A stretch of 32,000 bases of DNA from Candidatus Velamenicoccus archaeovorus (GTDB lineage Bacteria > Omnitrophota > Gorgyraeia > Velamenicoccales > Velamenicoccaceae), in the NCBI RefSeq assembly GCF_004102945.1, contig NZ_CP019384.1, forward strand, positions 1,200,001-1,232,000, given 5' to 3'. The position numbers and the translations under genes were made by a program. The notes beneath the pieces are model-generated. The model saw only the letters and a program-made list of their open reading frames with translations. It had not been told where the DNA came from and did not search any database. Shown piece after piece: positions 30,304-30,474 of the stretch (position 1 is the first letter of the stretch; the number at the start of each line of letters is the position of its first letter).

Positions 30304-30474
30304 GCACAACCCTCTGATAGGCCGACAATCAGAAATTTTTTGGCACATCATTTCAGTTTTGTCTGCAAGGAGTTGCATTTTTGCTGTAGCGACAATCTTC
30401 TATGGAGCGTAACAGCAAAAATGCAAACCGCAGCAGACGGCAAAAAATTTCGTCGGTCTATCAGAGGGTTGTGC
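30304..30474. repeat. ~171-nt extended imperfect palindrome of 4 stem segments, ~55 bp in total
   Basis: The stem segments are:
- Outer, 23 bp: 30304-30326 with 30452-30474. The only non-Watson-Crick pair is G30321 with T30457.
- Second, 11 bp: 30332-30342 with 30441-30451, with a 5-nt bulge on the left side.
- Third, 6 bp: 30361-30366 with 30433-30438.
- Inner, 15 bp: 30373-30387 with 30412-30426.
- Apical loop: 24 nt.

All segments were checked base by base. Confidence 0.9.

Follow-up and report, generated by a model that had tools for sequence, protein, structure and literature searches.

A conserved single-copy palindrome in the rodA/radical SAM spacer of the Candidatus Velamenicoccus clade: a candidate intercistronic RNA hairpin

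The spacer between rodA and a TIGR03960-family radical SAM gene (rSAM) of Ca. Velamenicoccus (Omnitrophota) contains an imperfect 171-bp palindrome, which, judging from the comparison of orthologous loci, appears to be vertically inherited and fixed at this site in the Ca. Velamenicoccus clade. It is, in our opinion, very probable that the element is a single-copy feature of one locus and is conserved under selection. The best explanation for it is that the mreC-mrdA-rodA-rSAM transcript forms an RNA hairpin between two cistrons, which may serve as an RNase III-type processing site or as a stability site; we hold this assignment tentatively, its chances being somewhat short of even.

Results

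Predicted structure of the palindrome

The window, i.e., the whole 32-kb stretch of DNA that was analyzed and to which all unlabeled coordinates refer, contains one copy of the element, at 30304-30474, with a GC content of 43%. The stems of 23, 11, 6, and 15 bp, the 24-nt apical loop, and the 5-nt bulge given in the original prediction of a near-perfect palindrome are all present (Table 1), the 6-bp stem being extended by 2 bp. The earlier list lacked one further part, an unpaired stretch of 16-18 nt on one side only (30343-30360). The sole exception to complementarity in the outer arms is the G30321:T30457 pair.

Table 1. Coordinates of the palindrome, its parts, and the flanking genes.
Feature	Position	Strand	Size or domains	Remarks
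rodA, upstream cistron	30512-31612	-	PF01098	
Spacer, rodA stop codon to palindrome	30475-30511	-	37 nt	
Outer arm, rodA side	30452-30474		23 nt	5' arm in gene sense; pairs with 30304-30326
Middle arm, rodA side	30441-30451		11 nt	pairs with 30332-30342
Inner arm, right half	30412-30438		27 nt	pairs with 30361-30387
Apical loop	30388-30411		24 nt	between the inner arms
Inner arm, left half	30361-30387		27 nt	81% complementary to 30412-30438; helix of 6 + 2 + 15 bp
One-sided internal loop	30343-30360		16-18 nt	no counterpart in the other arm (fold)
Middle arm, GAAATTTTTTG	30332-30342		11 nt	100% complementary to 30441-30451
One-sided bulge	30327-30331		5 nt	AATCA on the plus strand; identical in the window, L046, and L030
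Outer arm, radical-SAM side	30304-30326		23 nt	3' arm in gene sense; 96% complementary to 30452-30474
Leader, palindrome to radical SAM start codon	30147-30303	-	157 nt	
TIGR03960-family B12-binding radical SAM gene, downstream cistron	28395-30146	-	PF19864 + PF04055	

The predicted minimum free energy of the plus-strand RNA is -89.3 kcal/mol, compared with -40.0 +/- 3.7 kcal/mol for shuffled sequences (z = -13.5), and none of the 200 shuffles folded as well as the element. The corresponding value for the minus strand, which is the gene-sense strand, is -81.4 kcal/mol (z = -12.4), and that for the DNA fold is -57.2 kcal/mol (z = -13.5). The comparison with shuffled controls, which had been proposed at the outset, therefore places the fold far beyond chance on both strands. 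When a 171-nt fold was slid along all 32 kb, the element was in the top three most stable segments; at its exact register it is the most stable one, the runner-up (-84.8 kcal/mol) lying in coding sequence of 67% GC. The statement that the element is more structured than any other intergenic region thus holds for the whole window. On the gene-sense strand, helices of 23, 11, and 15 bp are predicted, including at least about 20 bp of continuous double-stranded RNA.

It had also been noted that no U-tract follows the hairpin on either strand, and indeed there is no T-run at either end; for this reason an intrinsic terminator was rejected. The terminator scan returned no hit for the hairpin as a whole, only a small internal hairpin at 30441-30427 of the minus strand. 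The window does contain canonical terminators at other sites, e.g., 19139-19171.

Genomic neighborhood

The flanking genes were correctly named in the original prediction, as judged from Pfam and from the source names of orthologues. There is a 4-nt overlap between the start of rodA and the end of the PBP2 gene (PBP_dimer/Transpeptidase in the upstream orthologue), and the gene order at orthologous loci is mreC-mreD-PBP2-rodA-rSAM-GGDEF, on one strand throughout. The rodA/rSAM spacer that holds the element is 365 nt long; in relatives, this spacer is as short as 55-106 nt. A scan of the gene strand of the spacer revealed no sigma-70-like promoter, with the proviso that the consensus may not be that of Omnitrophota. 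A promoter for rSAM within or after the element was rejected, none being found by scan or by eye. Since the genes are co-directional and no promoter or terminator consensus lies between them, the element probably resides in a polycistronic mRNA.

The 37-nt segment next to rodA has 6 differences in 37 positions between the window and L030 (related loci are denoted by L numbers), which is near the neutral rate; save for one at the penultimate position, these differences fall in the rodA-proximal 21 nt, and the remainder of the 16 nt adjoining the palindrome is common to both sequences. The leader on the other side is partly conserved with the palindrome-free loci L001, L060, and L061; in L026/L030 most of it has been replaced, and the L032 type has lost the greater part of it. 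One part of it (CGACGAGCCTTGG...GGCTCG...), conserved in L001, L060, and L061, has a predicted fold of its own and no match in Rfam.

The genomes closest to the window are Omnitrophota MAGs, and a protein 99.7% identical to the window's rodA product carries the name Ca. Velamenicoccus archaeovorus. Exact-protein look-ups of the window's rodA and rSAM, and of P0129, gave no entry. Ca. Velamenicoccus is an ultrasmall predator that is uncultured; most of what is known about it comes from studies of enrichment cultures and from genomes derived from metagenomes. Our literature search for palindromes or hairpin RNAs in Omnitrophota returned nothing.

Distribution among related loci

A strict 21-mer arm pattern, run against GTDB species genomes and JGI metagenomes, gave 0 matches in each collection. 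This pattern is too strict, because L026, a member of the GTDB set, has variant arms; the GTDB species collection evidently lacks the window's own genome. A loose arm pattern (GCNCANNCCTCTGATAGRCCGAC) matched six contigs among 241 million JGI metagenome records and none among viral contigs. Three of the six (L030, L031, L032) are the orthologous locus, one per metagenome; the other three (L029, L033, L034) are unrelated, AT-rich sequences, each with a lone chance match.

The fuller distribution comes from protein-guided retrieval of orthologous loci. Three lineages have the full element: the window, L046 (rodA identity to the window, 99.7%), and L026, which equals L030 (92% at the nucleotide level). 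L035 shows the 5' half only, as its contig breaks in the apical loop. Truncated copies, found in L031, L032, and L047-L053, keep the 37-nt spacer and element positions 1-130 and have lost the last 41 nt, i.e., one outer and one middle arm, along with most of the leader. The deletion starts within the 30343-30360 loop; the inner left arm is retained, and the outer arm on the radical-SAM side is missing from this lineage, while the outer arm on the rodA side is found in all element-bearing lineages, the truncated one included. Every copy, whether full, half, or truncated, lies directly after rodA, and a profile search over 484 kb of related loci found the element once per locus and in the rodA/rSAM spacer only.

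The element is absent from L001, L060, and L061, in which 139 unrelated nt without structure (z = -0.36) take its place, and likewise from L002 and L036-45 (106-nt spacer), L054-58 (149 nt), L003 (55 nt), and L004 (469 nt). Cryptic homology of the 139-nt segment to the element was considered and rejected, the similarity not exceeding that of shuffles. The rodA tree has the form ((window, L032), (L001, (L026, L030))), L002, L003, L004, so that the L001-type lineage is nested inside the clade. On the simplest history, the element would have arisen once, in the clade ancestor, and would later have lost one arm in the L032 line and been replaced in the L001 line; the single origin may have been an inverted duplication or an insertion.

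The other half of the L035 copy was sought through members of the rSAM cluster, of which P0262 and P0264 proved to be element-free loci of the L001 type. Assembly GCA_030154545.1 holds both L035, with its break in the apical loop, and the element-free L001-type locus L060; therefore, two related lineages co-occur in that sample. The palindrome seems to break short-read assembly. A search of 5.8 billion proteins with a chimeric peptide of the element's open frames returned no matches and is uninformative, because the known copies were not recovered either.

Other palindromes and repeats were encountered at the same site. The leaders of L026 (5826-6000) and L030 (7697-7871) carry a separate GC-rich palindrome (CCCCGGCCCTGGCC GAAG GCCGGGGCCAGGGCCG) that is absent from the window, and a perfect palindrome of 18 nt, GACAATCTCGAGATTGTC, lies in the L054-58 spacer. 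It seems that the rodA/rSAM spacer is a hotspot at which palindromes and replacements accumulate. Another operon-internal spacer of the window, 24391-24559, has an AT-rich inverted repeat (arms 24404-24437 and 24526-24559), a 20-mer of which (AATGAAAAATGAAGAATTAA) recurs exactly in another genus of the Omnitrophota, where it lies within the rodA/rSAM spacer (L004:5667-5686); these two copies may represent a dispersed repeat family.

Sequence conservation

Between the window and L030, 8 of the 171 positions of the element differ (4.7%), compared with 61 of 335 fourfold-degenerate sites (18%; Fisher p = 9e-6), the latter being counted over rodA and the first 1023 nt of rSAM. The element has therefore diverged about four times more slowly than the fourfold sites of its flanking genes, loops included. 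Five of the 8 differences lie in the outermost 9 bp and 3 in the inner 153 nt; unpaired sequence contains just 1, at gene-sense position 64 of the apical loop. The 30343-30360 loop has no differences despite the 18% divergence of fourfold sites, and the middle arm 30332-30342 is invariant across all full copies. Analogously, L035 has 0 differences at element positions 24-73, while its rodA fourfold sites differ from those of the window by 25%.

Thus, loops and bulges are conserved to the same degree as stems. Arm-to-arm conversion would be expected neither to lower the long-term substitution rate nor to protect loops, and for this reason purifying selection on the sequence is the best reading; the comparison points to an element that is held by such selection and is not junk. 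A coding explanation was rejected as unconvincing: the small open frames (57 codons on the plus strand, 26 amino acids on the minus strand) have no conserved start codon and no Shine-Dalgarno sequence, and 4 of the 8 differences are non-synonymous. The alignments accordingly suggest conservation at the nucleotide level and not at the protein level. The original prediction had named a single copy lacking both conservation and covariation as the outcome that would speak against it; the element is single-copy, and it is conserved.

Covariation and strand

At two base pairs of the outer helix, 3/169 (A-U vs. G-C) and 7/165 (C-G vs. G-C), both partners differ between the window and L030. L046 combines the 3' arm of the window with the ancestral G at position 7 and thereby represents a G.G mismatch intermediate, after which C7 of the window would have restored pair 7/165. 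The probability of at least two compensated pairs upon random placement of 8 substitutions is 0.0006, or 0.012 when clustering in the outer 9 bp is allowed for. Slid controls contained no double changes. The covariation analysis that had been called for therefore yields two double-sided pairs, while the formal shuffle control, which had just three full sequences to work with, did not reach significance (97/500). Covariation in the outer helix is suggestive, short of proof, and templated mutation of a quasi-palindrome is an alternative source of the same pattern. Pairing of the one-sided loop (ATGATGTGC) with the 37-nt spacer (GCACATCAT) was tried and rejected, since spacer changes in L030, L032, and L035 are uncompensated.

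The plus strand folds better than the minus strand by 7-8 kcal/mol in every full variant, and in the window all 65 pairs predicted for the plus strand are canonical. Pair 18/154 of the window is G.U on the plus strand and A.C on the minus strand, as is, through an independent transition, pair 75/118 of L030 (54/97 in gene-sense numbering). The opposite holds for the L032 type, in which pair 61/90 (gene-sense numbering) is C.A on the plus strand and G.U in the sense of the genes. The strand asymmetry that had been pointed out hence stands for the window and L026/L030 and fails for the L032 type; with two cases favoring the plus strand and one favoring the minus strand, wobble asymmetry does not settle the strand.

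Discussion

A candidate processing or stability hairpin

The structured-RNA and mRNA processing or stability candidates of the original prediction are compatible with the data and are favored, given conservation beyond neutral and the two double-sided stem changes. According to the model that we prefer, the element would be co-transcribed with mreC-mreD-mrdA, rodA, and rSAM in a predicted polycistronic mRNA, and the transcript would fold into a hairpin of ~58 bp that has an internal loop on one side only. RNase III or another endonuclease specific for double strands could cut a hairpin of this kind, which could also block 3'-exonucleases and may thereby uncouple the stability or amount of transcript on the rodA side from that on the radical-SAM side. 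The position, the duplex length, and the asymmetric internal loop suggest a mechanism of this type.

Intercistronic RNase III processing hairpins are known from the early mRNA of phage T7, with sites such as R1.1, and from the processing stems of rRNA operons. The element resembles them in its long near-perfect duplex, its asymmetric internal loop, its location in an untranslated gap between cistrons, and the lack of a U-tract. It differs in being much longer than the T7 sites (~58 bp, 171 nt), in having a less well paired gene-sense strand, and in the conservation of its loops; moreover, cleavage of the element is a prediction.

Several points count against the proposed mechanism. The fold is weaker in the sense of the genes (-81.4 vs. 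-89.3 kcal/mol), where A.C mismatches take the place of the plus strand's G.U pairs. Conserved loops and bulges would be needless for a plain nuclease substrate or exonuclease barrier. The full hairpin is evidently dispensable, as the L032 type is halved and the L001 type has unrelated sequence in its place. Finally, templated mutation of the quasi-palindrome could restore arm symmetry without selection on RNA.

Should the element prove to be a processing or stability signal, it would exemplify a recently born palindrome recruited to regulate the cell-elongation operon (mreC-mreD-mrdA-rodA). The full, half-deleted, and replaced versions in close relatives amount to a small natural experiment. 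Metatranscriptomes exist for the limonene enrichment culture (PMC12583861), and they could be read for an effect on rodA and rSAM transcript levels. Otherwise, there is nothing out of the ordinary about a feature of this kind, and no question of long standing hangs on it.

Alternative explanations

One alternative is a non-functional DNA palindrome, a MITE or snap-back inverted-duplication relic whose symmetry is kept by DNA-level processes such as templated arm-to-arm mutation. The almost entirely Watson-Crick, TIR-like arms suggest a young, DNA-level origin; the patchy distribution and the one-arm deletion, which is typical of palindrome instability, fit such a relic, as does the propensity of the spacer to acquire other palindromes and repeats (in L026/L030, L054-58, and L004). 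We nevertheless consider it unlikely, because the element diverges more slowly than both fourfold sites and the 37-nt spacer, with loops included, is confined as a single copy to one locus in every lineage and metagenome examined, and has neither a target-site duplication nor a transposase nor a clean empty site. The specific suggestion of a MITE or an ERIC- or Correia-like repeat found no support for the same kind of reason: a second copy, a target-site duplication, and a clean empty site were all not found. The 23-nt arms, 96% complementary, do qualify as the terminal inverted repeats of a MITE, but the copy number (one in the window, one per related locus in the 484 kb, and likewise in metagenomes) is that of neither a MITE nor a REP/BIME/ERIC repeat. 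The flanks, ...CTTATAT and GAATGCC..., have no direct repeat, as had been stated, and are alike in L026/L030. The loci that could have served as empty sites (L001, L060, L061) also lack the 37-nt flank and contain 139 unrelated nt instead. No other sequence with the element's ends, nor a parent IS, was found in the genome, metagenome, and viral collections searched. Enterobacterial REP/BIME and ERIC sequences are intergenic transcribed palindromes that alter mRNA stability. The element resembles them in form and length, as an imperfect palindrome in the range of 100-170 nt, in lying between operon genes in DNA that is (for the element, by prediction) transcribed, and in a possible role as a 3'-end stabilizer, whereas they are present in tens to hundreds of copies per genome, not in one copy at one conserved locus. 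The Correia-type MITEs of Neisseria are similar in length (about 150 nt), in their terminal inverted repeats of 23-26 bp, and in the RNA hairpin fold; unlike them, the element lacks a target-site duplication, multiple copies, a clean empty site, and matching IS ends.

One could also envisage a plus-strand gene for a small RNA, either independent or cis-antisense to the operon, producing a hairpin RNA of ~170 nt with the conserved loops as its working parts. The better plus-strand fold of all full variants, its 65 of 65 canonical pairs in the window, the independent transitions to G.U in the window and L030, and the conserved unpaired segments are all in keeping with such a gene. Yet the scan found no promoter-like site upstream and no terminator downstream on the plus strand, the L032-type transition is of the opposite sense, sister lineages have lost the element or half of it, and there is no match to an Rfam family, 6S included; this possibility is, in our view, distinctly unlikely. 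Even conservation of paired and unpaired parts would also be expected of a DNA-level protein-binding site, such as a cruciform or paired operators through which a regulator or recombinase acts on the radical SAM gene or the operon. The equal symmetry of both strands agrees with this, and so does the orphan rodA-side arm of the L032 type, which is still identical to that of L030 after the loss of its partner. The half-sites, however, are separated by 125 bp, much more than in usual operators, the adjacent genes include no regulator or recombinase, and attC-type core sites are unconserved, so we regard a binding site as very unlikely. Most improbable of all would be a clade-specific, stand-alone hairpin RNA gene of ~170 nt, resembling a microRNA precursor, whose invariant loops have a sequence-specific function in this predatory epibiont. 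Its product would be made from the plus strand or released by RNase III from the operon transcript and might, for example, recognize targets in trans; the better plus-strand fold and the conserved unpaired segments lean slightly toward it, and no transcription signal supports it.

Comparison with known RNA and recombination elements

6S RNA (RF00013) likewise has an extended hairpin of ~170-200 nt with a large unpaired region. In the element, that region is one-sided (16-18 nt vs. 0-1 nt) with no two-sided bubble, and the stems are near-perfect; in addition, the element is limited to one narrow clade and lost in close relatives. 6S RNA was rejected in view of the one-sided unpaired region and because RF00013 gave no match at E <= 10. 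The permissive Rfam search at that threshold returned only sub-threshold models of miRNA precursors for the element, matches that simply reflect a long hairpin. At the gathering threshold, Rfam 15 found none for the element and a single match in the window, to 16S rRNA; the edge of the window (1-1367, minus strand) holds part of a bacterial 16S rRNA gene, and there are no tRNA genes in the window.

An integron attC site (RYYYAAC ... GTTRRRY) was also rejected. The ends of the palindrome in the window, GCACAAC and GTTGTGC, are each one base off the attC consensus, but those of L026/L030, GCGCACG and GCTTGCGC, lack AAC and GTT; thus the core sites are unconserved, and the flanks are core genes in conserved synteny.

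Two further non-coding features of the window should be mentioned. A region of 550 nt on the minus strand (19640-20192) contains a ~45-nt tandem duplication (GGGCGGACCUCCGCAUCCAUGCUAAGGAGGGUCCAGC, twice) and a canonical terminator at its end. At 19935-20019, there is a sub-threshold match to the c-di-GMP-I riboswitch (25.6 bits vs. a gathering score of 35; E = 0.008).
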